DNA of 64,000 nucleotides from Gammaproteobacteria bacterium (GCA_036271575.1 DATBAJ010000071.1:65-64064); one strand, 5' to 3'. Shown: positions 3,268 to 31,213, counted from the first letter of the stretch. Numbers and translations are program-made. Notes: generated by a model from the sequence alone, not told the origin.

Positions 3268-4026
3268 TCAGTGTGAGGTTTTCGCTGCCCGCTGCGGGAA
3301 GACGAGGATGCCGATGACGATCAGCACCACTAGCATCGCGGAGGCGGTATAGCGGCTCAGGTTCAGGCCGCCGTGATCAAGAGGTTTGTCCAGGAAGTCG
3401 CCCACCACCGCGCCCAGGGGACGGGTCAGGATGAATGCCGCCCAGAACAACAACACCCGGTTCACCTTGGTCCAGAAGTAGAGGGCGGCGATCATCAGCA
3501 GCAGGACGCCGAAGATGACGGCGCTGCGCAGGTAGCCTTCGCCGATCGTGTCCGCGGTCCAGTCACCCAGCGCCGTGCCGAGGGTCTGGGAGAACATGAT
3601 GGTCACCCAATAGAACATCTCGGCCTTGGGGGTGCTCACGGTATTGATGGAGACGGAGCCCAGGGTGCGGTGCCAGACGAACAACGATGCCAGCACCAGG
3701 GCCAGCAGCAGGGAGCTGCCGCCGGTATAGCCGATGCCCAGCGAACGGTCGGCGAAGTCCGCGAGGGTGGTGCCGACCGTGGTGGTGGCGATGATGGTGG
3801 CCCAATACAGGAACGGGTGGAAGCGCTTGGCCCGGATCTGCGCCACCACGAAGCCGATGAAGATCACGGCGAAGATGCCCGTTCCGATGAGATACCCCAG
3901 GTTCATGGACATGGTCACGGCATCGCCGCCGGTCTCGCCCAGGGTGGTGCAGAAGATCTTGATGATCCAGAACACCAGGGTGACTTCCGGGACCTTGCTG
4001 AAGGCTTCACGGGCGGCATCTTTCAT
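3268..4026 (-). CDS. Polytopic membrane protein (COG4705 / DUF347-repeat-like)
   Basis: 252-aa ORF with about 8 hydrophobic segments and a repeated ..TTLGETGGD.. / ..QTLGTALGDW.. / ..TRPLGAVVGDF.. motif pattern that I associate with DUF347 repeats. The family assignment is from memory. Confidence 0.55.
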   Translation of the reverse strand: MKDAAREAFSKVPEVTLVFWIIKIFCTTLGETGGDAVTMSMNLGYLIGTGIFAVIFIGFVVAQIRAKRFHPFLYWATIIATTTVGTTLADFADRSLGIGYTGGSSLLLALVLASLFVWHRTLGSVSINTVSTPKAEMFYWVTIMFSQTLGTALGDWTADTIGEGYLRSAVIFGVLLLMIAALYFWTKVNRVLLFWAAFILTRPLGAVVGDFLDKPLDHGGLNLSRYTASAMLVVLIVIGILVFPQRAAKTSH

Positions 4027-4143
4027 GCGATATCTTTTTTGCTGGGGTGGTATCAGGCAATTCTAGCCCGGGGCTGCTGCGCGTGCGCGGGAATGTGAGA
4101 ACATAGCGCCCCCGCGATATTCCGTGACATCGGCTCAAGTCTC

Positions 4144-5934
4144 ATGGCATCCGATCTGCTCGTCAGCGTCCAGTCCATCAGCAAGGCCTACGGCCTGCAG
4201 ACGCTTTTCGACGGCATCACCCTGAGCTTCCGCGAGGAGGAGAGGTTGGGGCTCATCGGCCCCAATGGCTCGGGCAAATCCACGCTGCTGAAGATACTGG
4301 CGGGCATCGAGACGCCGGACAGCGGCCAGGTAGCCATGGCGGGTTCCACGCATCTCGTGTATCTGCCCCAGGAGGACAGGTTCCCGGCCGGCGCCACCGT
4401 CGAGAGCGCGCTGCTCGAAGCCTTGCCGCCGTATCACAAGGACGAGGGCTTAAGCAGCATCCGCGACAGGCTGCGGGAGATGGACTTCGCGGATCTGAAT
4501 CAGAAAGTGGATACCCTGTCCGGCGGCTGGCGCAAGCGCCTGGCCGTGACCTGCGCGCTGATCCGCGAGCCGAACCTGCTGCTCATGGACGAACCCACCA
4601 ACCACCTGGACCTGGAAGGCATCCTCTGGCTGGAAGGCTTGCTCAGGCAGGCGCGGTTCGCCTTCGTGCTGGTGAGCCATGACCGGTATTTCCTGGAGAA
4701 CGCCACCAACCGGATAGTGGAGTTGAACCGGCGCTACCCCGACGGCTACCTGAGGGTGGAGGGCAACTACAGCGAGTTCCTGCAGCGGCGCCTCGCCGTG
4801 TTCGACCAGCAGGACCAGCAGGAACAGGTGCTCGCCAACAAGTTCCGCCGCGAACTGGAATGGCTGCGCCGCGGCCCCAAGGCCCGCACCACCAAGGCCC
4901 ACGCGCGTATCGACGCGGCTTACGAACTGAAGGACGAGCTGACGGCGACCCGTGGCCGCAATGCCCAGGGTGCCCGCGCCGGCATCGAGTTTGAAGGCAG
5001 CGAGCGCAAGACCCGCAAGCTGGTGGAGTTGGAGCAGGTGGCGGTGGAGCGCGGCGGCCGGCGCCTGTTCGCGGGCCTCGATCTCACCCTGGGTCCGGGG
5101 AGTTGCCTGGGCGTATTGGGCAGGAACGGCAGTGGCAAGAGCAGCCTCATGCAGTTGTTGACCGGCGCACTGAAACCGTCCCAGGGCTCCATCAACTGGG
5201 CAGACGAGCTCAAGATCGTGAGCTTCGATCAGAAACGTGAACAGCTGGACAAGAGCCTGCGCCTGAAGGAAGCGCTCTCGCCGACGGGCGACAGCGTGAT
5301 GTTTCAGGGTAAGCCCCTGCACGTGACCGCCTGGGCGAAACGTTTCCTCTTCCCCATCGAGAAGCTGGGCCTGCCAGTCTCGAAGCTTTCGGGCGGTGAA
5401 CAGGCACGGGTGCTGATCGCGCGGCTGATGTTACAACCGGCCGACCTGCTGTTACTGGATGAGCCCACCAACGACCTGGACATCGCGACCCTGGAGGTGC
5501 TGGAGGACAGCCTGTCCGAGTTCCCCGGGGCCTGCGTGCTCATCAGCCACGACCGCTACCTCATGGATCGCCTGAGCGACCGGCTGCTATACCTGGACGG
5601 CGAGGGCCATGCCGAATATTTCGCCGACTACCCACAGTGGCTGCAAGTGCGCGCCCGGAGCACACCGGCGGCAGCGGCCGATGCGGCACCCGTGCAGAAG
5701 AAAGCCGCGGCCCCGCGTCTGAGTCGCGAGGAACGCAAGGAACTGGATGGCATCGAGAAGAAGGTCGGGAGAGCCGAGGCGGAGGTACAGCGCTTGCAGC
5801 AGCAGATGTCTGACCCGGCGGTCATGAGCGATGCAGCCCGGCTCAAGGCACTCTACGCCGAGGTGAAGGCGGCGGAAGCGAAGGTGGCGAGCATCTATGC
5901 CCGCTGGCAGGAACTGGAAGCGCTGGGCGGCTGA
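4144..5934 (+). CDS. ABC-F family ATPase (Uup-like, two ABC cassettes, no TM domain)
   Basis: 596 aa. Walker A motifs GPNGSGKST and GRNGSGKSS. ABC signatures LSGGWRKR and LSGGEQAR. A charged inter-domain linker and a C-terminal coiled-coil tail (..EAEVQRLQQQMSDP..) are typical of Uup/ABC-F proteins. Confidence 0.85.
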   Translation: MASDLLVSVQSISKAYGLQTLFDGITLSFREEERLGLIGPNGSGKSTLLKILAGIETPDSGQVAMAGSTHLVYLPQEDRFPAGATVESALLEALPPYHKDEGLSSIRDRLREMDFADLNQKVDTLSGGWRKRLAVTCALIREPNLLLMDEPTNHLDLEGILWLEGLLRQARFAFVLVSHDRYFLENATNRIVELNRRYPDGYLRVEGNYSEFLQRRLAVFDQQDQQEQVLANKFRRELEWLRRGPKARTTKAHARIDAAYELKDELTATRGRNAQGARAGIEFEGSERKTRKLVELEQVAVERGGRRLFAGLDLTLGPGSCLGVLGRNGSGKSSLMQLLTGALKPSQGSINWADELKIVSFDQKREQLDKSLRLKEALSPTGDSVMFQGKPLHVTAWAKRFLFPIEKLGLPVSKLSGGEQARVLIARLMLQPADLLLLDEPTNDLDIATLEVLEDSLSEFPGACVLISHDRYLMDRLSDRLLYLDGEGHAEYFADYPQWLQVRARSTPAAAADAAPVQKKAAAPRLSREERKELDGIEKKVGRAEAEVQRLQQQMSDPAVMSDAARLKALYAEVKAAEAKVASIYARWQELEALGG

Positions 5935-5956
5935 AGCCGGCGGTTATAATCCAGTC

Positions 5957-6769
5957 ATGCCATCCGATGCCGGTCTGATGCAGGGTCTGGACGCCGGGGA
6001 ACTGGCGGGCTTCGGACGCGACGGCTGGGCAGGGGTCTACCCGCTATTCGACGCCGCCCATGTGGATCGGCTCTGCAAGTTGCGGAATCGAGCGCTGGCT
6101 TATATCACGCCGCCGAATGACTTGGCGCAAGCGACGCGCCCTGAGGCGTTCGAGCAGCGCCCCTGGTTCAAGAGCATGCATGCCCTGGTGCCGGAGTATT
6201 ACGATGCGGCCTGCCATCCGGCCATCGTGCGCCGGGTCGCATCGGTCCTCGGTCCCGACGTGCTCGCTTGGGGCCTCACCCTCACGCGCTCCTTGCCGGG
6301 TGGTGTGCACCGCTGGCATGGGGACATCGAGCACCTGCGCTGGCCCGGCGTGAGTGTATATATAGGTCTGAAGAACAACGACCAGGATTCCACGCTCAAG
6401 GTGCTCACCGGGTCCCATCGGATGCCGGAGCGACCGCAGGCTTACGGGGTGGAGGACGACGCCGGCACCCTGGCAGCGGTGCGGCCCACGATGCCTGAGG
6501 CACAGATCGTACGGATACCGGTCAAGCCCGGCGGATTCTTCCTGTTCGACGGCCGGCTCTGGCATGGTTCCCACAACACCGGCCCCAATATCCGGCAGGC
6601 GATGATCATCCATTACTCGCGTCCCGACGCGAGGGCGCAGATACCCCTCAATTTCGACGAGCCTGTCCATTGGCACGAGTCGCGGCCTCCCTGCGTGCTG
6701 GTGTGCGGCGAGGACCGGTTTGGTACTAACCGATTAGTGGGCAGACCTCAGCCGTTTCCGCCGCCCTGA
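5957..6769 (+). CDS. Phytanoyl-CoA dioxygenase (PhyH) family Fe(II)/2-oxoglutarate oxygenase
   Basis: The ORF track opens at 5897 inside the ABC-F gene. The first in-frame ATG past that gene's stop is 5957 (MPSDAGLMQ..). HRWHGDIEH (HxD) and a distal WHGSHN match the 2-His-1-carboxylate facial triad arrangement of PhyH proteins. Confidence 0.7.
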   Translation: MPSDAGLMQGLDAGELAGFGRDGWAGVYPLFDAAHVDRLCKLRNRALAYITPPNDLAQATRPEAFEQRPWFKSMHALVPEYYDAACHPAIVRRVASVLGPDVLAWGLTLTRSLPGGVHRWHGDIEHLRWPGVSVYIGLKNNDQDSTLKVLTGSHRMPERPQAYGVEDDAGTLAAVRPTMPEAQIVRIPVKPGGFFLFDGRLWHGSHNTGPNIRQAMIIHYSRPDARAQIPLNFDEPVHWHESRPPCVLVCGEDRFGTNRLVGRPQPFPPP

Positions 6770-17523: not shown

Positions 17524-20500
17524 CTAGGGCTTGGCGCAGTCTGCCGGTGCCACGCTGACCGGCAGCAGCTGCCCCGCATCCAGACGCCAGGGAGAGCGGC
17601 AGCGGATCAGCGCGGCGACGGCCTCGGGCGGCCGGTCTTCGGCATGCACGTCCAGCAAGCGTGTGCCCGCATAGTAGGCCTGGCTTGCGATCTGCCCAGC
17701 GCCGGGGGCGAACTCCATGTCTTCAGTGAGCGAGGAGTCACCGCTGATCTCCAGCAGCAATTGGCCTGAATCGGGGTCCCGGAGCTGTGCAACCCGGCTG
17801 CGCACCAGCAGGAATTGCCCATCCGGACTGTATTGGGCCCGGTCCAGGCTGAGGCGTTCGGCGTTGTACAGCCATGACAGGCTGCCGTCTCCCGCATCCC
17901 AGACCTTTAGGGTGCCGTTGCGATGGACCGTGACCAGGCGCCGGCCATCGGGATCGTAGCGGATGCTATCGACCTCGCCGCTGCCGCTGTCCCAACTGCG
18001 CAGCAGCTTGCTGTCGGCGATCTGCCACTCACGGATCACGCCGGCATTGTCTGCCGTGGTCACGATCTGTCCATCTGGACTCAGGGCCGCTCCGGCATTG
18101 TAGGAATACAGTATCTCCGGAGGAGCCAGGCTGCGGCGATGCATCTGGAGATCCCAGACCTCCGCGTAGTAACGGAACGGCTCTTTCGAGCGGTCCTCGC
18201 GGATGCCAAGGAAGTGGCTTCCGTCCGGCGTGAAGTGAGTGGCGTCGGCGCAACCCTCGGGCATGGCAAAACCGGCGAGTTGCCTGCCGTCATGCGCATC
18301 CCATATGTGGGCGGTCTTGTCATCACCGCAGCCGAAGACCCGCTTGCCGTCCGGAGTGAAGGCCGCCACGCTCATGGGGCGGCGCGACATGACCGACAAC
18401 ATCCGGCCATCCGCCGCATCCCACACACTCAGCGACGGATTCAAAGAGGCAGCTGCCAGGATTCGCGTCCCATCGGGGCTGAACACCGCGAAACTCGCGT
18501 AAGCCTTGTCCGGCTTGGATGGATCGCCTTGCGGCAAGGCCAAGTCGAAGAGACGCTTGCCATCGTGGGCCCGCCAGATCGTCACCCGTCCTTCGTCCGT
18601 GGTCGCCACGCGGGCCCCCATAGGGTCGTAGACCGGATGTGACCCGCTCACGTCGATGACCGCGCTGAGCACCGCCGCCATGTCCCACACTTGTGCCACA
18701 TTATCCTTGGTGACGGTCATCAGCCGGGTCGAGTCCCTGGTGAACAAGGCCACGCCGCCCGGCAACACGCCGCGCTGGGTATAGTCCTTACCGTCCCAGA
18801 TCCAGGTCACATCTTTGGCGGATGCGGCGATGAAGGCGCCGTCCTCGCTCATGATCAGGTTATCGATCTCGTCCGGCATCGCGGCGAAGCGCGCCAGGTT
18901 CTTGCCGGTGGCGGCATCCCAGACCCGCACGGTCTTGTCCTTGCTGCCGGTCAGCAGGCGTTTGCCGTCCGGCGAGAAGATCACGACCTTGACTGCATCG
19001 TCATGTCCACCTTCGTAGTCGTCGCGGTTCTTGGCGGCGATGGTATACAGCAGCCGGCCGTCGTGGGTATCCCAGACCCGTACGCTCTTGTCGTCGCTGG
19101 AACTGGCGAGCCGGCGGCTATCGGGGCTGAAAGCGAAATTTCCGACGTCGGCGCGATGACCGGTCAGTTGCGCCACCAGCCTGCCGTCACGGGAATCCCA
19201 CAGGGACAGGCTGTGGTCGGCATCGACGCCCACGATGCTGCGGCCATCAGGGCTGAAACCGGCGTGTTTGATGTGGCCGCCGCGCCCTTTCAGGGTCAGT
19301 TGCAATTTCCCGGAAGCAGGGTCCCATATCTGCACTTCACCCCCACGCTCGGACCGGGTGAGCAGGCGCTTGCTGTCCGCGTCGAACAGTGCGCCCACCA
19401 GGAAACTATCCTTGAAATTGAGACTCGTCACCGTGGCGCCTGTGTGGGCGTCCAAGACCCGTATCACGGTGTCCTGATCGAGGGTGTCCCGCTTGCTGCC
19501 CACCGCAACGTAGCGACCGTCGGGAGAGAAGCGCGACCACAGCTCCATGTGCCCGGGTTCGCCTATGGAGAGCAGATGACGGCCGCTGTCCACGTCCCAT
19601 ATATCGGCATCGCCAGCGCCGCCGGCTGCCGTCATGCGCTTGCCGTCCCGGGTCATGTCGGGATTGAACCACAGGCCGGCTTCGACGAAACGTCCGCGCA
19701 GGGAATCCACATACAACATACTGCGGGCCAGCAGCAGACGCAGGGCCGGCGTGCGGCCTCCTAAACGATAGGCCTCTCCCAGATAGGCTGCCGCCTGCAG
19801 CGGCTCCCCCTGCAGGTAAAGTTGGCGCCCTTGTTCCGTGTAGGCAGCTATCGCAGCTTGCTTCGCCTTGCGCTGCGCCTGCAGGTCCCAGGCGCCGGTC
19901 AACAACACCGCTGCGACCACCGCGGCCGCCGCCCACTGCAGCCGTCTCAGCAGGCGCCGGCGTTTCTCGCGCTGACGCAGTTCGTCGTAAGGCACCCCCA
20001 TGATCCCAGCGAGCAGCTTGAGACGGGCGCTCGCCTTGCCGTCCTGCTGCGGGCGGGCATCGGCCGCGATCGGTTCCACGCGCTCAGTCAGCAACCGACC
20101 CTCGCTGTCTACGCGGTGCCGCAAGGCCGGCGGGAAGCACTCCAACTCGCCGCTCTCAGGGCGGTCGCCGGCATTGGGTTCGCCGTCCACGATCAGCGCC
20201 AGGATGCGGTCGGCGCGTCCCTGGCGCTTGAAGGCGATGATCTCTTCGTTCACCCAGCGCGACACAGCCGCCCGCGGCGAGCAGACCACCACCAGGTAGC
20301 GGGAATGCTGCAGCGATTCGTTGATGTTGTCGGAGAGATCGGCGGAAGAGGGCAGCTCTTCGCGGTCGCGGAACACGGGGAACAGGCGTCGCGGCAGCGG
20401 CCCATCGCGTCCCTCCCGGCCCACCAGCCGGCGGGGGACGCGGTAGCTTTCCAAGGCCTTGTGCAGCCAGTCGGCCCAGGCCTTGTCGCGGTGGCTATAG

Positions 20501-20553
20501 GAGATGAAGGCCCAGTAGCGGCGGTGCTGTGGTTCCACCTGGGACACCCTCAT
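17524..20553 (-). CDS. TIR domain / single-TM / WD40-repeat protein
   Basis: 1009 aa. The N-terminus YWAFISYSHRDKAWADWLHKALE..FPVFRDREELP..YLVVVCSPRAAVSRWVNEEI is TIR_2-like, including the SxWxxxE(L/I) motif. A basic stretch RQREKRRRLLRRLQ precedes one hydrophobic helix, WAAAAVVAAVLLTGAW (about nt 19885-19944). About 14-15 WD-like repeats then follow, ending ..(I/V)W(D)xxxG with FSPDG(K/R) cores (about nt 17659-19668). Confidence 0.85.
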   Translation of the reverse strand: MRVSQVEPQHRRYWAFISYSHRDKAWADWLHKALESYRVPRRLVGREGRDGPLPRRLFPVFRDREELPSSADLSDNINESLQHSRYLVVVCSPRAAVSRWVNEEIIAFKRQGRADRILALIVDGEPNAGDRPESGELECFPPALRHRVDSEGRLLTERVEPIAADARPQQDGKASARLKLLAGIMGVPYDELRQREKRRRLLRRLQWAAAAVVAAVLLTGAWDLQAQRKAKQAAIAAYTEQGRQLYLQGEPLQAAAYLGEAYRLGGRTPALRLLLARSMLYVDSLRGRFVEAGLWFNPDMTRDGKRMTAAGGAGDADIWDVDSGRHLLSIGEPGHMELWSRFSPDGRYVAVGSKRDTLDQDTVIRVLDAHTGATVTSLNFKDSFLVGALFDADSKRLLTRSERGGEVQIWDPASGKLQLTLKGRGGHIKHAGFSPDGRSIVGVDADHSLSLWDSRDGRLVAQLTGHRADVGNFAFSPDSRRLASSSDDKSVRVWDTHDGRLLYTIAAKNRDDYEGGHDDAVKVVIFSPDGKRLLTGSKDKTVRVWDAATGKNLARFAAMPDEIDNLIMSEDGAFIAASAKDVTWIWDGKDYTQRGVLPGGVALFTRDSTRLMTVTKDNVAQVWDMAAVLSAVIDVSGSHPVYDPMGARVATTDEGRVTIWRAHDGKRLFDLALPQGDPSKPDKAYASFAVFSPDGTRILAAASLNPSLSVWDAADGRMLSVMSRRPMSVAAFTPDGKRVFGCGDDKTAHIWDAHDGRQLAGFAMPEGCADATHFTPDGSHFLGIREDRSKEPFRYYAEVWDLQMHRRSLAPPEILYSYNAGAALSPDGQIVTTADNAGVIREWQIADSKLLRSWDSGSGEVDSIRYDPDGRRLVTVHRNGTLKVWDAGDGSLSWLYNAERLSLDRAQYSPDGQFLLVRSRVAQLRDPDSGQLLLEISGDSSLTEDMEFAPGAGQIASQAYYAGTRLLDVHAEDRPPEAVAALIRCRSPWRLDAGQLLPVSVAPADCAKP

Positions 20554-22481
20554 TCTCCCTCGTGGGCGCGGCGCAGCCTATACAGTACGTTCTCGCCATA
20601 CTGTTTGGCGAGGGTCATGGACCCCAGATAGTCGCAGGCGAACTCGCGGGCGCCGGCTGCCGCCAGCAGGGCGGCCAGCTGCTCACTTATATATACGGCA
20701 CCCGCGGCCGTGACCGGCTCGATGCGCGCGGCGCGGTTCACGTGAGCGCCGAAGAAGTTGCGGCGGCCGATGATCGGGTCGACCGCCGGGAATACCGGGC
20801 CTGCGTGCATGCCGATGCGGATGCTGGTGTCCTCCGGCAAGCCGTGGCGGCGCCACTGGGTGGCGCGCACCGCATCACGCAGCCGCAGGCCGAAGTCCGC
20901 TGCCGGTGCCGGCTCATCGAACACCATGAACAGGCCGTCGCCCCAGGTGTTGAGGAAGGCGGGCATGGCGCCGCTGCCGGCGATGACCCGCGCGATCACT
21001 CCCAGGAAGTGCACCAGGAACGCCGGCGTGTCCGCCTCCTGCAGCCGGCTGAAACCCACCATGTCCGCGAACAGCATGGTCTTGATCTCGCGGTGTGCCG
21101 CCTCCGGCGAGGTGAGCGGCGCAGAGGCGCGGCGCGCGGGCGCTCCGGCGTCGCGTAGCGCGCGCAGGTCTATGTTGCGCGACGGCCGTCCAAGCTGTTC
21201 CCAGGCGTTGACCGCACTCTGCGTGCCTCCACGGCGCTCCGGGTCCAGCGGGTCCAGCACCGCGAGCTGCAGGACCCCGGTCTCGAGCTGTCCGGCGCGG
21301 AGCAAGGCCGCGCCCTGGGTGAGGGCGGCGGTGTATTCGAAGAGGATGTCATCGCCCAGGTACTGCTCCTGTACCGCGCGGCTGACGCTGGTGGCGTGGC
21401 GCAGGGCCGCGTGGAAACGCCGCGTCCATTGCGGACCGGCGAAGCCGACGCTGGTCTCCAGGAAGTCCTGTTGGGCGAACGGCAGGATCACGTGAACTTC
21501 CGCGCCGCGTTTCAGCATCTGCTCGATGAATATGATGTCGGCGCCGCAGGCGGCCGAGCAGTAGCCGAAGCCGGCGTCGCATTCCTCCAGTGCCGCAGCC
21601 ACCGCGCGCGTGACCTTGGGTTCGAGCGCCGCCGGGAATCGGGGTTCGGTCCGTTCGGGCCGATCCAGCATGTGGCCCGTGAATACCACCACCCGCGGCA
21701 GCGATACCAGCGCGTCGAGTCCGGACGGCACCGCGCTATCCAGCAGACGCAACTGCCTGCGCATGCTGGCGATGTCGCCGAAACGGCCTCGCATGGCACG
21801 CATGGCGCGCTGGTACCAGTGTTCCGCTTGCGGACCATCGCCCAGCAGCGCGCTGGCCTCACCCAGGGTGGCGTACATCCACGGATCGATCTTGCGGGTG
21901 TTGCGCAGTTTCTTCAGGCACAGCCGCCGGGTCTCTTCGGCCAGCGCGCGGCTTTCGACGGCGCGGCCGAGCAGCGAATACAGCGTCGCGGCATTGATGG
22001 CGGGGAAATATCCGCCGCTTGCGGCATAGGCCTCGGCGTAAGCGGCGGCGGCGCGCTCGCCGGCTTCGCTCCGCGCCGGTCCGGCGGGGAGACGGGCCCA
22101 CAGGTCCTTTGCGATGCGTCCTTCGAGGCTCTTGGCTTCTGCGTAGAGCGGGTCGGCGTGCCGGAGTCTGCCCGTGAGCGCCGCGAGCAGGCCCACGGCT
22201 TCGGTGTAGGAACCGCCGCGCGCCGCGGCCAGCGCCGCGAGATAACCGAGTTCGCGCTCGCGGGGGTGATGACTGATACCGTGGCGCAGGATCTCGTAGG
22301 CGAGGGTCGGATACCCATACTCCAGCGCGCGGCGGCCGGCATCGCAGAATGCGGCGGCATCCCAGTCCGCGCCGCCGGCGCGCTGTTCCCAGGCGGCGAT
22401 CAGGCCCCGCAGGTCCACCGGCGTTCGACGGCGCGGACGCGCCTGCTTCGCTGTGCGGCTGGCTTGGGTCTTGCGCGGCAT
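20550..22481 (-). CDS. Multidomain class III nucleotidyl cyclase (helical-repeat N-domain + Rossmann-like middle domain + cyclase)
   Basis: 643 aa. The C-terminal ~175 aa hold cyclase motifs: MLFADMVGFS (metal Asp), TWGDGLFMVF (metal Asp), IRIGMHAGPV and GAHVNRAARIE (Asn/Arg). The N-terminal ~230 aa are alpha-helical-repeat (..GGYFPAINAATLYSLLG..), TPR/DUF4071-like. The middle domain is ..VVVFTGHMLDRP..YCSAACGADIIFIEQMLKRGAEVHVILPF... The stop overlaps the TIR gene start (ATGA). Confidence 0.85.
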   Translation of the reverse strand: MPRKTQASRTAKQARPRRRTPVDLRGLIAAWEQRAGGADWDAAAFCDAGRRALEYGYPTLAYEILRHGISHHPRERELGYLAALAAARGGSYTEAVGLLAALTGRLRHADPLYAEAKSLEGRIAKDLWARLPAGPARSEAGERAAAAYAEAYAASGGYFPAINAATLYSLLGRAVESRALAEETRRLCLKKLRNTRKIDPWMYATLGEASALLGDGPQAEHWYQRAMRAMRGRFGDIASMRRQLRLLDSAVPSGLDALVSLPRVVVFTGHMLDRPERTEPRFPAALEPKVTRAVAAALEECDAGFGYCSAACGADIIFIEQMLKRGAEVHVILPFAQQDFLETSVGFAGPQWTRRFHAALRHATSVSRAVQEQYLGDDILFEYTAALTQGAALLRAGQLETGVLQLAVLDPLDPERRGGTQSAVNAWEQLGRPSRNIDLRALRDAGAPARRASAPLTSPEAAHREIKTMLFADMVGFSRLQEADTPAFLVHFLGVIARVIAGSGAMPAFLNTWGDGLFMVFDEPAPAADFGLRLRDAVRATQWRRHGLPEDTSIRIGMHAGPVFPAVDPIIGRRNFFGAHVNRAARIEPVTAAGAVYISEQLAALLAAAGAREFACDYLGSMTLAKQYGENVLYRLRRAHEGE

Positions 22482-22617: not shown

Positions 22618-25600
22618 ATGCTCCATCGCCGAATGCATCATCGGTCTCTGCGCCTGCGGGCCTTGGCGGTCGTCACCGGCTTGTGCCTGGCGTGCTGTGC
22701 GTCGTCGTCATCGGCGGCACCGGCGACTAGTCTGCCGCCGGGGTCGAGCCTGCGTTTCCGCCACATCCGCATCGAAGACGGCCTGGCCCAGAGTTCAGTG
22801 CAGGCCATCGTCCAGGACGCCCAGGGCTATCTGTGGTTCGGCACCCAGGACGGATTGCAGCGCTACGATGGCTACGGCTTCCTGACTTTCCGCCACGATC
22901 CCTCCGATCCCGGCTCTCTCTCGGACAACACGGTGAATGCCTTGGCCTTGGGGCAGGACGGCGCGCTCTGGGTCGGTACGTCGACGGGCGGCTTGGACAG
23001 GTTGGATACCAGCACCCGCCGTTTCAGCCATCTCGCCAATGATCCCAAGGACCCGGCCAGTCTCGCCAGCGACCAGGTGTCGGTGCTGTATGTGGATCGC
23101 CAGCAGCATCTGTGGATAGGTACCGGTGCCGGACTCGACCTGTACGATGGGCACGTCTTCCATCATTACCCTATCTCCGATTCCTCCGCCGGCCCGCGCA
23201 GCGTCAACAGCCTCCACGAGGATGCGAACGGGCGGCTTTGGGTGGGAAGCGGTCACGGCATCTTCTATATGGACGGCGATCATCTGGCGCCGTTCGTGGC
23301 CGGCGGCAGCATGACCTCCGATCAGCATGGCTTGTTCACGGAATCACCCATCCACGCCATCACCGGGGTAGGCGGCATGCTGTGGATCGCCAGCGGTAGA
23401 GGGATCGCGGCGGTGGATGCCCATGGAGAGCTGCAGCATTTCTATGCCCACTCCAAGGCGCCGGATTCCCTCGCCAACGATCATGCCCTGGCGCTGCTGC
23501 GGGACTCCTCCGGCGATGTCTGGGTCGGCACCTACGGCGGGGGAGTGAGCCGCTTCGACGATAGCGCCGCCGGGTTCTCATCCTACCGGCACGATGCGAC
23601 GGACCCCGGGAGCCTCGGCAGCGACCAGATCAACGTGCTCTATGAAGACCGTTCCGGCCTGATCTGGATCGGCACCGACGATGACGGCGTCGACATCTAC
23701 AATCCGCGCACCCGTGCTTTCGGCTACTACCGCCACAAGCAGGATGACGTGAACAGCCTGGCCAGTAACATGGTGTGGTCCATCTTCAAGGATCAGGCGG
23801 GCGATATCTGGGCCGGCACCGATCACGGGCTCACGCGCATGGATGCCGCCCGGCGCCACTACCGGCAGTACCACATGGGCGAGAGACCCGCCACGCGCGT
23901 GGACGACGATCAAGTCAACGTCGTCTACGGCGACCGGCAGGGTGGGCTGTGGACGGGGACTGACTACGGCATCTATAGATATGAGCCGGCGCGTGATGCA
24001 TTCCAGCGCTATGACCTGGTGCCGGGCCGCGATGACAGCAGCGGCAACGTGGTGAGTTCCCTCTATCAGGACAGCCACGGTCGCCTGTGGGCCGGCACCG
24101 GCGCGGGCCTGGTACAGGTGGACACGGAGAAACGCGGCGCGCGCCGCTTCCGCCATGACCCCAACCGCGCCGATAGCCTGCCGGCAGATGCCGTCATCGC
24201 CCTCTGCGAGACCACGGACGGCCGCCTGTGGGTGGGGACTTCCGGCGGGCTCGCCTCCTTCGACGGCACGGCCGACAGCTTCCAGGTGTTCCACAACGAT
24301 CCCAGGGATTCCACCAGTGTCAGCTACGACAACATCCAGTCCTGTCGCGCGGATGCCGAAGGCGGGCTTTGGGTCGGCACTGCCGACGGCTTGGATCACC
24401 TTGCGGCGGGACAGCGGTCGTTCAAGCGTTACTTCAGCCGCGACGGTCTTCCCAACGACACGATCTACTCGATCCTGGCGGAGCCGGCGGGCGCGATATG
24501 GATCAGCACCGACGACGGCCTGTCGCGTTTCGAGCCCGCGACCGGCGCGTTCCACAACTACCTGAAGAGCGACGGGCTGCAGAGCGACGAGTTCAACGGT
24601 GGCGCGGGTTTCGCCGCCCCGGACGGCGAACTGCTGTTCGGCGGCGTGGACGGACTGAACGCCTTCTATCCTTCCCACATCGCCCGCGATGCGTTGCCGC
24701 CGAAGGTCGCCGTCACCCGTTTCCTGCGTCAGAACTCGGAGGTGCCGCTGGCGACTACGGCCGGACAGACGGACGCAGTGCAAGTGCAATACCAGCAGAA
24801 CATGCTGAGCTTCGAGTTCACGGCCTTCGACTACGCGGAACCCGAGCTCAACCGTTTCAGCTACCGGCTGGACGGATTCGACGACGAGTGGCATGACTTG
24901 CGCGGACGGCACGCGGCGACCTATACCAACCTGGACCCGGGCAAGTACCTGTTGCGGGTGCGCGGCGCCAACAGCGACGGCGTGTGGAGCGCCGATGATG
25001 CGACCCTGGATATAGAAGTGCTGCCGCCGGCCTGGCGCAGCGGCTGGGCGTATCTGTTGTATGCCGCAGCCGGTTTCGTGACGCTGATGGTGGGGCTTGC
25101 TCTCTACAAGCGCATCATCCAGCGTGAGCAGCGTCTGGTGGAGGAACAGCAGCGCCGGCGTTGGGCGGAATCCTTGCACGACCTCATCCATCGCGTGACT
25201 GCCCAACGCGACGATCGCAGCATCGCCGAGCAGCTCATCGATGCGCTCACCAACTTCATCGACTACGAGCAGGCCTTGTTCTACGTGGAGCGGGAGGGCA
25301 GCATGACCTTGCTGGCTTCGCGCGGCATCGGTCCCACCGAACAGGCCTACCTGGAGCATTGGCCGCAGCAGCAACCGGGCATCGTGGCGCGACTCAAGCA
25401 GGCGCAGAAGACGCTGCTGCTCACGCCGGAGGATGCGGCGACCCTGGCGGGCGGCGCCAAACCGGGGCGGCACCATTACCTGGCGGTGCCGCTGCACTCC
25501 GGCAGCGGCGCGTTCCGGCTGCTGTTGGTGGGCCGGCCGAACCGGGTCCTCAAGGAGCAGCAGATGGCGGTGGCCACCGCCATGGCCAAGCAGGTGAACA

Positions 25601-26145
25601 TGGCGCTGGACAACATACAGTTGATCCAGGACTTGGAGGACCTCGCCACCACCGATGGACTGACCCGGCTCTATAACCGGCGTCATTTCATGGAGCGTGC
25701 CGAGAGCGAGTTCGAGCGCAGCCGCCGTTACCGGCGCGACTTGTCGGTGTTCCTCATCGATGCGGACCACTTCAAGCTCATCAACGACACCCATGGCCAC
25801 GAGGCGGGCGACCGGGCGCTGCGGCTTCTGGCCTCTGCCTGCCGCGAGGGCTTGCGCCAGCTGGACGTGATCGGCCGCTACGGAGGCGAGGAGCTGGTGG
25901 CGCTGCTGCCGGAAGCTTCCGCCGCAGTGGCCTACGAGACCGCCGAACGACTGCGGCAGAGCATCGAACGGATACAGATACCCTTGCCGCAGGGCGAAGC
26001 CCGGCTGACGGTGAGCATAGGCGTAGCCACCGCCGGGGCCGACACCGAGACCGTGGCGGCGCTCATCAACCAGGCGGACCGGGCCCTGTATGAGGCCAAG
26101 CGCAATGGCCGGAACCGGGTGGTGGCGGCCGGCGCTCCGAAATGA
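22618..26145 (+). CDS. Periplasmic two-component-regulator-propeller/Y_Y_Y sensor - TM - GAF - GGDEF diguanylate cyclase
   Basis: 1175 aa. Signal/lipoprotein-like N-terminus. Many ..LW(V/I)GT..GL..(Y/F).. propeller repeats, followed by a Y_Y_Y-like Ig segment (FSYRLDGFDDEWHD..). TM helix WAYLLYAAAGFVTLMVGLALY. GAF-like region. GGDEF domain with RYGGEEL active site and an RQLD (RxxD) I-site. Confidence 0.85.
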   Translation: MLHRRMHHRSLRLRALAVVTGLCLACCASSSSAAPATSLPPGSSLRFRHIRIEDGLAQSSVQAIVQDAQGYLWFGTQDGLQRYDGYGFLTFRHDPSDPGSLSDNTVNALALGQDGALWVGTSTGGLDRLDTSTRRFSHLANDPKDPASLASDQVSVLYVDRQQHLWIGTGAGLDLYDGHVFHHYPISDSSAGPRSVNSLHEDANGRLWVGSGHGIFYMDGDHLAPFVAGGSMTSDQHGLFTESPIHAITGVGGMLWIASGRGIAAVDAHGELQHFYAHSKAPDSLANDHALALLRDSSGDVWVGTYGGGVSRFDDSAAGFSSYRHDATDPGSLGSDQINVLYEDRSGLIWIGTDDDGVDIYNPRTRAFGYYRHKQDDVNSLASNMVWSIFKDQAGDIWAGTDHGLTRMDAARRHYRQYHMGERPATRVDDDQVNVVYGDRQGGLWTGTDYGIYRYEPARDAFQRYDLVPGRDDSSGNVVSSLYQDSHGRLWAGTGAGLVQVDTEKRGARRFRHDPNRADSLPADAVIALCETTDGRLWVGTSGGLASFDGTADSFQVFHNDPRDSTSVSYDNIQSCRADAEGGLWVGTADGLDHLAAGQRSFKRYFSRDGLPNDTIYSILAEPAGAIWISTDDGLSRFEPATGAFHNYLKSDGLQSDEFNGGAGFAAPDGELLFGGVDGLNAFYPSHIARDALPPKVAVTRFLRQNSEVPLATTAGQTDAVQVQYQQNMLSFEFTAFDYAEPELNRFSYRLDGFDDEWHDLRGRHAATYTNLDPGKYLLRVRGANSDGVWSADDATLDIEVLPPAWRSGWAYLLYAAAGFVTLMVGLALYKRIIQREQRLVEEQQRRRWAESLHDLIHRVTAQRDDRSIAEQLIDALTNFIDYEQALFYVEREGSMTLLASRGIGPTEQAYLEHWPQQQPGIVARLKQAQKTLLLTPEDAATLAGGAKPGRHHYLAVPLHSGSGAFRLLLVGRPNRVLKEQQMAVATAMAKQVNMALDNIQLIQDLEDLATTDGLTRLYNRRHFMERAESEFERSRRYRRDLSVFLIDADHFKLINDTHGHEAGDRALRLLASACREGLRQLDVIGRYGGEELVALLPEASAAVAYETAERLRQSIERIQIPLPQGEARLTVSIGVATAGADTETVAALINQADRALYEAKRNGRNRVVAAGAPK

Positions 26146-27874: not shown

Positions 27875-30800
27875 CTACTTAGGCGGGGCGAGAGCGGCGA
27901 GATATTTTTCCACGTCAGGAACCGACATGGGCTTGGAGAAGAAATAACCCTGACCCTTGCGGCAGCCCAACGCGCGCAGCAATTCGACCTGACGCGCGTC
28001 CTCGATGCCTTCCGCCACCACGTCCATGCCCAAATCCGCCGCCAGCACCGTGATGGTGCGCACGATGGCACGATCGGCGCGGGCCTTCTCGATGCCGGTG
28101 ATGAAGGAGCGGTCGATCTTCAGGGTGTCGATCTTGAAGCGGCGCAGGGCGCTCAAGGATGAATAGCCGGTGCCGAAGTCGTCCATCTGCAGGTTCACAC
28201 CCACGGCGCGCAGCCGGGCGATGGTCTCCACCGCCAGCGCCGGGTTGTCCATGAATACGGTCTCGGTGATCTCCAGGCACAGGTTCTTGGGCTTGATGCC
28301 GGTCACGTCCAGCACCCGCGCCACCCGCTGCGGCAGCACCCAGTGGGCGAACTGGCGGTTGGCGATGTTCACGCTCATGGTGATGTCTTCGCCGAGATGC
28401 TTGTACTTCTTCTTCCAGGCGGCGAACTGGGCGCAGGCGGTCTCCATGACCCACCAGCCGATGGGGATGATGAGGCCGGTCTCCTCGGCCAAGGCCAGGA
28501 AATGCTCGGGACCGAGCAAGCCCTGGGTGGGGTGCTCCCAGCGTACCAGCGCCTCGAAGCCGGAAAGCTTGTTGGCGGCGATATCCATCACCGGCTGGTA
28601 GAACACGCGGAATTCGCTGCGTTGCAGGCCCTGGCGCAAGTCGGTCTCGAGTTTCAGGTTGGCCTTGGCGCTCTCATGCATGGCGTCGTCGAACACCACG
28701 TAGCCGGCCTTGCCGGCGGCCTTGGCGCGGTACATGGCGGTATCTGCGTCGCGCAGGATCTCATCCGGATGCTTGTAGTGCGGCGCGTTGATGACGATGC
28801 CGATGCTGGCGTTGGTGAACACCTCGTGACCGTCCACAGTGATGGCGCGTGCCAGCTCTTCATGCACCCGGTCCGCCACCGCCGTGGCATCGTCCAGGCC
28901 GGTGATGTTCTCCACCAGGATGGTGAACTCGTCGCCGCCGTAGCGGGCGATGAGATCGGCGGGACGCAGGCAGGTGCGCAGGCGGCGTGCGATGGACACC
29001 AGCACCCGGTCGCCGAAGCTGTGCCCCAAGCTGTCGTTGATGAGCTTGAAGCGGTCCAGGTCCAGGAACAGCACCGCGAAACGGTCCGAGCTGCGCTTGC
29101 CCACGTGCTCCAGGGTCTGCGTCAGCTTCTCCATGAAGAAACTGCGGTTGGGCAGGTCCGTGAGCGGGTCGTGGTAGGCGCCTTTCAGCAGTTCCTGTTC
29201 CGAGCGTTTCTGGGCGGTGACGTCGCGCACCGTACCGGTCACCGCGGGCGTGCCGCGGAAGGGGACATGCGCCACGGTGACGGCGGCCACGATGCGGCTC
29301 TTCTCGTCCTTGTGCATGAACCGCAGTTCGTGCAACTCATGGCTCGCATGCAGCACGTATTCTTCTTCGAAGGCGTTGCTGGAATGGCGGTCCTCGGGAG
29401 CCAGGAGCGAGCTGAAGGAGAGGCCGGTCATCTCGTCGGGCGTGTAACCCAGCATGGCGGCGAAGGCGCTGTTCACATACACCAATCCGCCGCGGGAACT
29501 GAGGAACACGCCGTCCTGGCTCATGTCCACCAGCGTCCGGTATTTCTCCTCGGACTGGGCCAGTGCGTCCTCGGCGAGCTTGCGCGGTGTGATGTCCTGC
29601 AGAGTGCCTTCGTAGTACTCGATCTTGCCGGACTTGCCCCTGACAGCCCGCGAATTGTCCGAGACCCAGATGGTGGTGCCGTCGCGACGGGCGACCTGGA
29701 ACTCCTGGTCGGCATAGGAGCCGTCCTTCTCGATGAGCTGGAGCAGTTCGGCGCGTTGCTCCGGATGCAGGTAGGTGCGCTCAGCGACGTTGGTGTTGGA
29801 TGCGACCAGTTCTTCCGGCGAGGCGTAGCCGAGGATGCGGGCCAGGGCTTTGTTGGCGCGGATGATGCGCCCGTCCGGGGTGGTCTGATAGATCCCTTCC
29901 ACGGCGTTCTGGAAGATGCTGGCATAGCGGCGCTCCACATCCAGGAGCGCGCTGGTCTGGTCGGGATCGCCGCGCTGATCGTGGCAGACCGCGAGCACGG
30001 TGTGCTTGCCGTCCAGTACCTGCAGACGCGCGTGGATGCGCACCGGCAGGCTGCCGCCGTCCTTGGTGCGCAAGGCCGTATCGGACAGGAGCGCCTGCTC
30101 CGAGAGCAGCGCCTCGTTGATCTCGCGTAGTTTGTCAGCGGCCATCAGGCTCGAGGGGCTGATCTCCAGCAGCTCATCGCGGGCGTAACCCAGGAGCGTG
30201 CAGGCGGTGTCGTTGGCTTCGATGAAGGGGCCGCCGATGCGGCCGTCCTCGCCGATGGGGTAGACCAGGATCGCATCGCCACCGGTGTTGAACAAGGTGC
30301 GATAACTGACGTCGCGGCGATGCAGGGCATCGAGGGCGGAGCGGTAGTCGGTGACATCTAGCACCGCGGTCAGTACATAGGGCTTGCCCTCGATCTCCAC
30401 CATCTCGGCCGATGTCAGGCCGCGGCGGCGTTCGCCGCCGCGGGTGAGGAAATGCGACTCGCGGTTGCTGATGCGGCCATTCAGGCGCAGTTCCTGCAGG
30501 TACTCTTCGCGCTCCTCCTTGAATTCCCAGAGGCCGAGTTCCACGGCGCTGCGGCCGATGATCTCGGCCGGACTGAAGCCGAGCATGCGTTCCACGGCGG
30601 CGTTCACGTCGGTGAACTTGCCGGTCTCCAGTTCCGAGATGGCGATGATGCCGGGCGCGGCGCGGAAAGCGGTGGCGAACTTGGCGGCGGCGAGCCGCTG
30701 CACTTCGTCCAGGCGGCGCCGGCGCAGTTCCGCGGCGCAGCGCGCCGCCAGCAACTTGAGGGCATCGAACAGTTCATCACTGGCCTGGAAGGGCTGGCGC

Positions 30801-31213
30801 GACATGATGCCCAGGTGGCCGATGGATTGGCCGTCCGGGCCGGCGATGGCGACGGCGCAGTAGGCGCGCACGCCGTGTTTGCGCAACCAGCGGTCCTCGG
30901 GGAAAGCAGTGGCGGCCTCGTCCTCGATCCAGAGCCGGCCTTCCGCCATCACGCGCTCGGCGGGCGTACCCGGGATGTCGATCTCACCCAAGGCGCCGGC
31001 GGCGTGGTTCACATGCCAGCCGGCCACGAGCTTGAGGCGCTTGGGGTCTTCCGGGACGCGGAGGGTGACGAAGGCGTATTCGGTGTCGAGGCCGGCGGCC
31101 AGGCTGCGTACCAGTTGGCGGAAGAAATCCTGGCCGACGAAGCCCGCAGTCTGCTCCATGAGACTGTAGAGCACGCCCGCGGGTGCGGCGTGGAGGGCGC
31201 TTTCCGGCTTCAT
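27875..31213 (-). CDS. GAF - multiple PAS - GGDEF - EAL signalling protein
   Basis: 1112 aa. N-terminal GAF-like domain and at least 3-4 PAS/PAC units. GGDEF domain with RYGGDEF and an RPAD (RxxD) I-site. EAL domain with FEALVRW, DDFGTGYSS and ..EGIE.. motifs intact. Confidence 0.9.
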   Translation of the reverse strand: MKPESALHAAPAGVLYSLMEQTAGFVGQDFFRQLVRSLAAGLDTEYAFVTLRVPEDPKRLKLVAGWHVNHAAGALGEIDIPGTPAERVMAEGRLWIEDEAATAFPEDRWLRKHGVRAYCAVAIAGPDGQSIGHLGIMSRQPFQASDELFDALKLLAARCAAELRRRRLDEVQRLAAAKFATAFRAAPGIIAISELETGKFTDVNAAVERMLGFSPAEIIGRSAVELGLWEFKEEREEYLQELRLNGRISNRESHFLTRGGERRRGLTSAEMVEIEGKPYVLTAVLDVTDYRSALDALHRRDVSYRTLFNTGGDAILVYPIGEDGRIGGPFIEANDTACTLLGYARDELLEISPSSLMAADKLREINEALLSEQALLSDTALRTKDGGSLPVRIHARLQVLDGKHTVLAVCHDQRGDPDQTSALLDVERRYASIFQNAVEGIYQTTPDGRIIRANKALARILGYASPEELVASNTNVAERTYLHPEQRAELLQLIEKDGSYADQEFQVARRDGTTIWVSDNSRAVRGKSGKIEYYEGTLQDITPRKLAEDALAQSEEKYRTLVDMSQDGVFLSSRGGLVYVNSAFAAMLGYTPDEMTGLSFSSLLAPEDRHSSNAFEEEYVLHASHELHELRFMHKDEKSRIVAAVTVAHVPFRGTPAVTGTVRDVTAQKRSEQELLKGAYHDPLTDLPNRSFFMEKLTQTLEHVGKRSSDRFAVLFLDLDRFKLINDSLGHSFGDRVLVSIARRLRTCLRPADLIARYGGDEFTILVENITGLDDATAVADRVHEELARAITVDGHEVFTNASIGIVINAPHYKHPDEILRDADTAMYRAKAAGKAGYVVFDDAMHESAKANLKLETDLRQGLQRSEFRVFYQPVMDIAANKLSGFEALVRWEHPTQGLLGPEHFLALAEETGLIIPIGWWVMETACAQFAAWKKKYKHLGEDITMSVNIANRQFAHWVLPQRVARVLDVTGIKPKNLCLEITETVFMDNPALAVETIARLRAVGVNLQMDDFGTGYSSLSALRRFKIDTLKIDRSFITGIEKARADRAIVRTITVLAADLGMDVVAEGIEDARQVELLRALGCRKGQGYFFSKPMSVPDVEKYLAALAPPK

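Follow-up and report, generated by a model that had tools for sequence, protein, structure and literature searches.

We have analysed a 64,000-nucleotide stretch of DNA from a Gammaproteobacteria bacterium (GCA_036271575.1), the whole of which is here called the window and in which gene positions are counted from the first letter. The subject is a gene on its minus strand whose product joins a TIR domain, a hydrophobic helix and a double WD40 propeller. On balance it is probable that this TIR protein is a type II receptor of the inner membrane with its propellers in the periplasm, and that the nucleotide cyclase encoded by the overlapping upstream gene works in the same pathway. A preliminary description, made from the sequence alone, had placed the open reading frame (ORF) at 17524..20553 and the TIR domain at its N-terminus. 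Both placements hold, as the ORF list and the translation give a product of 1009 aa with an ATG start, and the Pfam model TIR_2 (PF13676) matches residues 16–125 with 57.1 bits against a cut-off of 28 (E = 3.2e-15). The further proposal that the TIR domain would be cytoplasmic and the propellers extracytoplasmic is supported computationally by the conservation of the helix, the charge bias around it, the fusions of the same head to other modules, the swaps of the head itself, and the co-occurrence of two cysteines in the tail.

Predicted membrane topology and exchangeable modules

The hydrophobic helix LQWAAAAVVAAVLLTGAW (residues 205–222) follows directly on the basic patch RQREKRRRLLRR (193–204), and it is the sole strongly hydrophobic window in the TIR protein, which has no other transmembrane (TM) segment and no signal peptide. 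Its flank on the N-terminal side holds eight Lys or Arg residues and its flank on the C-terminal side three. The preliminary description had seen the basic stretch followed by a single hydrophobic segment, and had reasoned from the positive-inside rule that the N-terminal side is cytoplasmic. The segment is there, though marginal in this protein, and the charge bias recurs in 294 of 298 relatives.

These relatives are 182 homologues with the junction motif and 116 independent cluster representatives, and a segment was called TM-like when its uncharged run was at least 17 residues and its Kyte-Doolittle mean over 15 residues (KD15) at least 1.6. Among the 182 homologues the median uncharged run was 22 residues and the median KD15 2.41, and 96% passed both thresholds; 110 of the 116 new representatives were TM-like as well. 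Some 95% of all the relatives keep the basic-patch-plus-helix element, the conservation of which had been named as a check in the preliminary description, and what is conserved is its position and character, not its sequence. Lys and Arg were more frequent in the N-side flank than in the C-side flank in 179 of the 182 homologues (means 6.8 and 3.2) and in 115 of the 116 representatives. The same picture was seen in a search with the full protein, which gave more than 6000 matches: of the top 120, about 110 have their hydrophobicity maximum at residues ~195–230, directly after D-E-L-K-Q-R-E and an Arg-rich block, and for many of these relatives the 19-residue mean (KD19) was 2.0–3.0.

In an alignment of 42 full-length homologues (alignment A1) the helix segment is only 30% identical, as compared to 65% for the TIR domain. 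That hydrophobicity and position are kept while the sequence drifts suggests a lipid-facing anchor, and not a packed helix or a coiled coil. The charge bias implies that the N-terminal side is in the cytoplasm, and a TIR domain without a signal peptide and in need of nicotinamide adenine dinucleotide (NAD+) is also expected to be cytoplasmic. The window encodes the type II secretion system protein GspL, which indicates that the host is a diderm and has a periplasm. All named hosts of homologues belong to diderm phyla.

The modules found on the two sides of the helix point in the same direction. An exhaustive HMMER search with residues 1–235 gave 4318 cluster representatives at E ≤ 1e-30, the TIR-TM module was N-terminal in all 150 best matches, and the new representatives have a median of ~760 residues beyond the helix. 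In Dyella, Lysobacter and Rhodanobacteraceae the TIR-TM head (55–69% identical) carries TPR arrays, in a Verrucomicrobiota genome a PEGA, FG-GAP and PQQ_2/BamB-like module, and in Pyrinomonadaceae a helical module of ~400 aa without Pfam match. Domains of the PEGA, FG-GAP and BamB-like types are usually extracytoplasmic, and their occurrence on the same head supports a position of the C-terminal side outside the cytoplasm. The head is exchanged too. WD40 homologues of the TIR protein carry a Pkinase domain (P0022, P0101) or AAA_16/nSTAND1 (P0064) before the TM helix, and Pkinase and STAND NTPase heads replace the TIR domain before both TM-WD40 and TM-TPR. Since these heads need cytoplasmic nucleotides, like the NAD-dependent TIR domain, the head side should lie in the cytoplasm. 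The helical module of the Pyrinomonadaceae loci (L047, L056 and related ones) has the motifs GGWNMFP and YTTALALLALLE, and it is only a guess from these sequences that it might form an α/α-toroid.

Of the six Cys of the TIR protein, C985 and C1006 belong to the C-terminal tail, where the preliminary description had noticed them as a possible periplasmic disulfide. In the family the first belongs to the motif E.R.P...L[VI]RCR.PWRL..G.L and the second comes about 20 residues later, and the two appear and disappear together. When the first Cys was present the second was present in 18 of 18 cases, and when Q, D, R or A replaced the first in the tail motif, the second was found in 0 of 10. Such a pattern of co-occurrence is the one expected of a disulfide in an oxidising compartment, and the pair is probably to be regarded as a candidate disulfide. 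Another Cys pair, C742 and C768, is restricted to the eight closest relatives, all with exactly four Cys past the TM helix; it could be a second disulfide.

Several observations weigh against a membrane anchor and exported propellers. The segment LQWAAAAVVAAVLLTGAW is marginal and rich in Ala and Gly, and its KD19 is 1.55, just below the usual 1.6; the KD15 of its core is 2.05 and it has 18 uncharged residues, which is low for its family. Summed crudely on the Hessa scale the segment gave +2 to +5, a positive value that lacks terms for position and length and was not relied on. The co-occurrence of the tail cysteines may stem from one or a few evolutionary events, and WD40 repeats of the classical Gβ type are known mostly from cytosolic proteins. 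In the AlphaFold2 (AF2) model a single uninterrupted helix (189–247) runs from the basic patch through the hydrophobic segment into a polar stretch, and the closest solved folds are those of cytosolic double-propeller WD proteins such as Apaf-1. It is conceivable from this that the helix does not span the membrane, and that the whole protein is a cytosolic STAND-like TIR-WD40 sensor without the NTPase, the Ala-rich helix being a coiled-coil or oligomerisation element. We find this very unlikely, as the segment is strongly hydrophobic in the family (median KD15 2.4, median run 22, KD19 of 2.5–3.0 in many members) and stays so at 30% identity, which is typical of membrane anchors. The near-universal charge asymmetry, the fusion of the same head to PEGA, FG-GAP and BamB-like domains, and the co-occurrence of the tail Cys pair also speak against a cytosolic protein. 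From these sequence patterns it is quite likely that the TIR protein is inserted in the membrane as a single-pass type II protein, with its N-terminus in and its C-terminus out.

Domain architecture of the TIR protein

The TIR domain is an α/β fold at residues 13–185 in the AF2 model, and it is the best conserved part of the protein, with 65% identity among distant homologues as against 23–27% for the propellers. In alignment A1 the glutamate E104 of the motif SRWVNEE is invariant (42/42) and W100 is nearly so (41/42). A phmmer search aligned SRWVNEE with WCLDEL and WCLEEL of the plant TIR proteins AT1G72930 and Roq1, and E104 matches their glutamate. In TIR NADases, catalysis depends on the glutamate before the last Leu of the plant WCLxEL motif. 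The TIR domains of relatives match the Pfam model ThsB_TIR, and the domain is without the RDxxPG box 2. The invariant E104, its alignment with the plant residue and the ThsB_TIR matches suggest a TIR domain that cleaves NAD, and activity as such an enzyme is a likely prediction. A match to an anti-sigma factor model in NCBIfam (residues 171–242, 19 bits against a cut-off of 100) was put down to the composition of the basic patch and the TM segment, not to homology.

The AF2 model, built on the 42 homologues of alignment A1, has a mean predicted local distance difference test score (pLDDT) of 90.2 and a predicted template modelling score (pTM) of 0.77. Beyond the TIR domain and the long helix it shows a hairpin (251–284), 64 β-strands (285–968), and a helix and hairpin (976–998), and the stalk motif YTEQGRQ..L..G.P..A..YL.EAY is kept in the alignment. 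Pfam WD40 and β-propeller models cover residues ~300–920 (PF00400, 146 bits). The preliminary description had counted 14–15 repeats, enough for two seven-bladed propellers, and this number has to be revised. There are sixteen WD-like repeats, at residues 296, 342, 390, 433, 475, 526, 568 and 604 and, after a break at 625–631, at 642, 691, 732, 774, 824, 866, 908 and 948. The predicted structure, which had been named as the way to settle the blade number, gives strands for 8+8 blades and not 7+7. The 64 strands, the 16 four-stranded blades and the break between the sets indicate two eight-bladed propellers in the model, their closure being taken from the strand and repeat counts.

Foldseek found double-propeller WD proteins for this region: 2ymu from Nostoc (E = 8e-41), Apaf-1 (3sfz, TMq 0.39), and eukaryotic tandem-propeller proteins. 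The second propeller is the least conserved part of the protein, with 23% identity among distant homologues. A shorter relative is encoded at 4003..5973 of locus L089, from a metagenome-assembled genome (MAG) of a Pseudomonas sp.; it has 656 aa, a single propeller, the same stalk and the same tail with the Cys pair.

Table 1. Position of the TIR gene, its parts and its neighbours in the window.
Feature	Position	Strand	Basis
Entire gene: protein of 1009 aa with TIR domain, TM helix and double WD40 propeller	17524..20553	-	ORF list, translation, Pfam, AF2
TIR domain, residues 13-185; candidate catalytic Glu E104, codon 20242..20244	19999..20517	-	TIR_2 E = 3.2e-15
Arg/Lys-rich patch RQREKRRRLLRR, residues 193-204, after D-E-L-x-Q-R-E motif	19942..19977	-	Sequence; family-wide conservation
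Predicted transmembrane signal-anchor helix LQWAAAAVVAAVLLTGAW, residues 205-222, framed by Trp	19888..19941	-	Hydrophobicity; AF2
Helical stalk and TPR-like hairpin, residues 223-284	19702..19887	-	AF2 helices 189-247, 251-263, 269-284; alignment A1
First β-propeller, residues 285-624, 8 WD-like repeats	18682..19701	-	32 strands by DSSP; repeats; Pfam; Foldseek
Second β-propeller, residues 632-968, 8 more degenerate WD-like repeats	17650..18660	-	32 strands by DSSP; repeat motifs
C-terminal tail, residues 969-1009, helix and hairpin, Cys pair C985/C1006	17527..17649	-	AF2 helix 976-986, strands 989-998
Upstream partner gene, 643 aa	20550..22481	-	Pfam TPR-S and Guanylate_cyc; AF2
Partner TPR-S/TPR region, residues 24-248	21738..22412	-	
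Partner Rossmann-like region, residues 263-438	21168..21695	-	
Partner class III cyclase, residues 465-638	20568..21089	-	
ATGA overlap, partner stop / TIR gene start	20550..20553	-	Direct sequence reading, ORF coordinates
Reg_prop/Y_Y_Y/GGDEF gene	22618..26145	+	
PAS x4-GGDEF-EAL gene	27875..31213	-	

The database copy of the TIR protein (P0001) has 1004 aa in place of 1009. Its start is probably a GTG five codons 3' of the ATG used here (20539..20553). The ATG has the better Shine-Dalgarno context of the two, and it overlaps the stop codon of the partner gene.

The cyclase partner and the genomic setting

The ATGA overlap of the partner gene with the TIR gene, together with a GAGGGAG Shine-Dalgarno-like run just 5' of the TIR gene start codon, indicates that the two are translationally coupled, and the pair is syntenic in close relatives. 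Pfam finds TPR-S and Guanylate_cyc in the partner, and MAP3K_TRAF_bd below threshold; the AF2 model has a pLDDT of 87.8. The cyclase domain matches PF00211 with 47 bits against a cut-off of 21.9, and it is the only domain for which Foldseek (TMt 0.75–0.83) and the PDB sequences (3et6 and 1y10 among them) gave matches. The metal-binding aspartates D473 and D515 as well as R586 are invariant, the motif HVNRAAR is present, and the cyclase, which keeps the two metal ligands and the transition-state Asn/Arg of its class, is probably active, as predicted from these residues. The substrate-specifying position is held by an unusual invariant Asn, N511, in the motif NTWGDG; canonical adenylyl cyclases have Lys and guanylyl cyclases Glu at the equivalent position.

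Between the TPR-S region and the cyclase lies a Rossmann-like α/β domain with the invariant motifs FTGHMxD, RFP and ACGAD, for which Pfam (E ≤ 10), PADLOC and the PDB sequences, searched with a profile from alignment A3, gave no match. A SLOG-type identity was considered, and the sequence and profile searches gave no confirmation of it. The domain may represent an undescribed family with a ligand-binding or an enzymatic role, and it is a candidate reader of a nucleotide made by the TIR domain.

Linkage of the two genes was counted in 80 TIR-TM species loci and, separately, in 80 metagenome loci around partner homologues. A partner homologue, 27–43% identical, was within the flanks of 23 of the 80 TIR-TM loci, and these come from Verrucomicrobiota, Alpha- and Betaproteobacteria, Magnetococcales, Methylomirabilia and Acidobacteriota. 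In these 23 loci the gene order varies, with the partner upstream, downstream or divergent, and ectodomains of the WD40 type are found as well as the helical type without Pfam match. From the side of the partner, in the Pseudomonas MAG (L089) the TIR-TM-WD40 gene is directly upstream of the partner, the reverse of the order in the window, and in Dokdonella (L090) a TIR-TM-TPR gene is two genes away from it. The two genes in between (L090 4111..5931) are paralogous, and the hydrophobic N-termini of their products resemble signal peptides; one paralogue has a Calx-beta domain and a hydrophobic Arg-rich C-terminal tail resembling a sorting signal of the IPTL/PEP-CTERM type. Among the Pyrinomonadaceae, L047 and several related loci have the partner immediately downstream, and in the sequence examined of L056 it was not found.

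The commonest neighbour at the metagenome partner loci (30 loci) is a TM-anchored repeat protein, either TIR-TM-X or nSTAND1-TM-TPR, and along with the latter there is often a soluble protein with TIR_2 and DUF4062. At L111, L131, L152, L135, L143 and others the partner is beside an nSTAND1-TM-TPR protein of ~920–1400 aa and a soluble TIR_2-DUF4062 protein of ~490 aa, an arrangement that seems to have the same system in split form. It appears from these loci that there are several arrangements in which the cyclase protein, a TIR domain and a TM-anchored repeat protein repeatedly come together.

The proposed reading also has points against it outside the protein itself. Only 12 of the 80 metagenome partner loci hold a TIR domain of this family, and many homologues of the TIR protein are without a cyclase partner, the distant P0008, P0012 and P0025 standing alone. 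The counts of 23/80 and 12/80 imply that the pair is facultative, and together with the lone homologues they rule out an obligate two-gene system. The TIR gene lies in a housekeeping neighbourhood that shows vertical synteny, not in a defence island. Of the known defence systems PADLOC detected none, and its matches were weak and at the level of single domains only. The pair is flanked by two large genes for cyclic di-GMP signalling, and the synteny of the pair with the one encoding Reg_prop/Y_Y_Y/GGDEF extends to related genomes (L001, L003). Scans of the window for promoters and terminators gave counts at the shuffle expectation, and no tRNA was found in it.

This setting bears on the role of the protein. 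It is conceivable that the topology is as predicted and the protein is a housekeeping receptor for envelope signalling, or a periplasmic scaffold, responding to envelope stress, cell-cell or nutrient cues, with the TIR domain and the cyclase as an ordinary second-messenger module. Such a role would agree with the housekeeping neighbourhood, conserved in related genomes and shared by the distant homologues, with the lack of signs of mobile elements or defence islands among the neighbours examined, and with the lack of a system-level PADLOC match. The nearby GGDEF and EAL signalling genes and the partner's predicted product, as cyclic nucleotides are a classic regulatory output, would fit it too. 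We regard it as somewhat unlikely, since the TIR domain has retained the catalytic Glu that marks the NAD-cleaving TIR domains of immunity, the ectodomain is fast-evolving and exchangeable on a conserved head, and TPR-S bears the name of a sensor repeat in Pfam and was presumably defined for conflict systems. Furthermore, the sister loci carry nSTAND1-TM-TPR and soluble TIR-DUF4062 proteins, families which Pfam and Kaur et al. tie to conflict systems. A conserved head with a fast-evolving ectodomain that is exchanged between WD40, TPR and PEGA/FG-GAP/PQQ types points to a receptor, and for a role as a receptor or in a conflict system we put the chances at a little under even.

Proposed mechanism and relation to known systems

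If the protein is a membrane receptor, the Arg-rich patch and the 18-residue helix would act as a signal-anchor and leave the TIR domain in the cytoplasm with NAD+, while the stalk, the two propellers and the probably disulfide-stapled tail would be exported to the periplasm. A periplasmic or envelope ligand binding to the propellers would shift the oligomeric state, and the cytoplasmic TIR domains would be brought together, which would turn on NAD+ cleavage. TIR NADases are switched on by bringing TIR domains together. The cleavage would either deplete NAD+ or yield a nucleotide signal. In this clade the translationally coupled partner is most likely cytoplasmic and in the same pathway. Its Rossmann-like domain possibly serves to read what the TIR domain makes, upon which the cyclase would make a cyclic nucleotide, a logic like that of Thoeris with another output. 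This order of events with the partner is tentative, the chances being somewhat against it.

Of the known systems, the closest documented parallel is the class of kinase-TM-WD40/TPR proteins of Planctomycetota, which share a nucleotide-dependent cytoplasmic head, one TM helix and long repeat arrays, and whose WD40 and TPR arrays are for the most part periplasmic by DeepTMHMM prediction (PMC11032199). The kinase-TM-WD40 proteins P0022 and P0101 are direct WD40 homologues of the TIR protein. The differences are the TIR head, the junction of D-E-L-K-Q-R-E, basic patch and TM helix, the stalk of its own, the Cys-pair tail in many members, and the frequent link to a cyclase. The predicted plan is of a known kind, the membrane-anchored sensor with a cytoplasmic signalling head. 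A related plan is found in the vWA-MoxR ternary systems, where Kaur et al. 2020 (eLife, PMC7159879) describe TM segments followed by PEGA, OmpA, PASTA or Sel1 domains, and also one component in which a variable globular domain at the N-terminus and a membrane-spanning segment precede C-terminal TPR or β-propeller regions. The components described there belong to vWA-MoxR ternary systems, unlike the TIR-TM-WD40 family, and in the consulted parts of that paper and of a 2021 paper neither this family nor its cyclase partner is described.

The preliminary description had likened the protein to the Toll-like receptors (TLRs) as an outside-in sensor, and the likeness stands for the layout: both are single-pass, with a repeat-built ectodomain outside (predicted here) and a TIR domain inside, and activation by oligomerisation of the TIR domains, driven by the ectodomain, is expected. 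It does not extend further. TLRs are type I proteins with a signal peptide, leucine-rich repeats (LRRs) and a C-terminal TIR domain, whereas this protein would be of type II with a signal-anchor, an N-terminal TIR domain and a WD40 double propeller, and Pfam finds no LRR match in it. Its TIR domain is closest to the bacterial TIR_2/ThsB type and the enzymatic plant TIRs, with a catalytic-type Glu. The resemblance is convergent, and the protein is an analogue of TLRs in layout only and not a member of that family. The sensing function itself is presumed.

With Thoeris, in which the ThsB TIR domain makes an isomer of cyclic ADP-ribose and the effector ThsA reads it through a SLOG domain, the pair shares the ThsB_TIR match in relatives, the two genes and a partner domain that could read a nucleotide. 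It differs in that the partner ends in a class III cyclase and the TIR protein is (by prediction) membrane-anchored with an ectodomain of ~790 aa. Membership in Thoeris was rejected, as there is no adjacent ThsA (SIR2, Macro or TM-SLOG), PADLOC gave no Thoeris match, and the NCBIfam model ThcB4 scored 16.8 bits against a cut-off of 220. The cytosolic TIR/STAND-WD40 sensors, Apaf-1-like or bacterial NLR-like/Avs, have tandem WD40 propellers as the presumed sensor together with a death or immunity effector domain. Here a TM helix lies between effector and sensor and the sensor is predicted to be outside the cytoplasm; the absence of an NTPase domain from the Pfam matches of the TIR protein sets it apart from the STAND and NLR-like proteins.

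Pycsar, which consists of a PycC cyclase and an effector activated by a cyclic nucleotide monophosphate (cNMP), PycTIR included, shares with the pair a cyclase gene that adjoins a TIR gene, and the partner has a weak PycC match. That match is E = 0.0016 only and Pfam finds no cNMP-binding domain in the TIR protein, so the pair was not assigned to Pycsar; the partner cyclase also has large TPR-S and Rossmann-like N-terminal regions which set it apart. The wiring could still be that of Pycsar, the partner sensing through its TPR-S and its cyclase product activating a membrane-tethered TIR effector, with propellers that only localise or assemble. The place of the partner gene as the first of the operon, its sensor-type TPR-S repeat, the PycC match and the effector-type, enzymatic TIR domain would all be in line with this. 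We consider such a reversed pathway quite unlikely. The TIR protein lacks a detectable cNMP-binding domain, the gene order is variable, and a variable ectodomain of ~790 aa is hard to explain as a mere tether. Furthermore, ~70% of the TIR-TM loci are without the partner in their flanks and distant homologues are alone, which implies that the TIR-TM protein must be able to work by itself.

In the databases the homologues have generic names such as 'TIR domain-containing protein' and 'WD40 repeat protein', and the literature searched gave no description of TIR-TM-WD40 proteins or of the TPR-S/Rossmann-like/cyclase partner family. The family is very large, spread over diderm phyla and so far uncharacterised. 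A wider reading, put forward tentatively and in our view rather unlikely, is that it is an undescribed large class (at least 4300 clusters at 50% identity) of transmembrane TIR receptors, whose exchangeable ectodomains would survey the periplasm and envelope for, e.g., phage entry, predatory bacteria or injected effectors. They would signal by NAD chemistry, in about a third of the loci via the cyclase partner (from TIR to nucleotide to cNMP), and sister systems would have the same parts split into nSTAND1-TM-TPR and TIR-DUF4062. The recurrent cyclase partner and the modular sister systems are new relative to the preliminary description and raise the value of the TIR-TM finding.

To our knowledge, the characterised bacterial TIR systems (Thoeris, TIR-STING, TIR-SAVED, PycTIR and the TIR-containing Avs) all sense cytoplasmic events. 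If oriented as predicted, the protein would belong to a pathway in which a bacterial TIR domain reports on the space outside the cytoplasm, with the logic of the TLRs assembled independently and in reverse order. The conserved TIR-TM head, the catalytic Glu that can be mutated, the candidate disulfide and a cyclase partner with a measurable output offer handles on the family. With that orientation it would become directly testable whether bacteria detect phages and other attackers already at the envelope, before the cytoplasm is breached.

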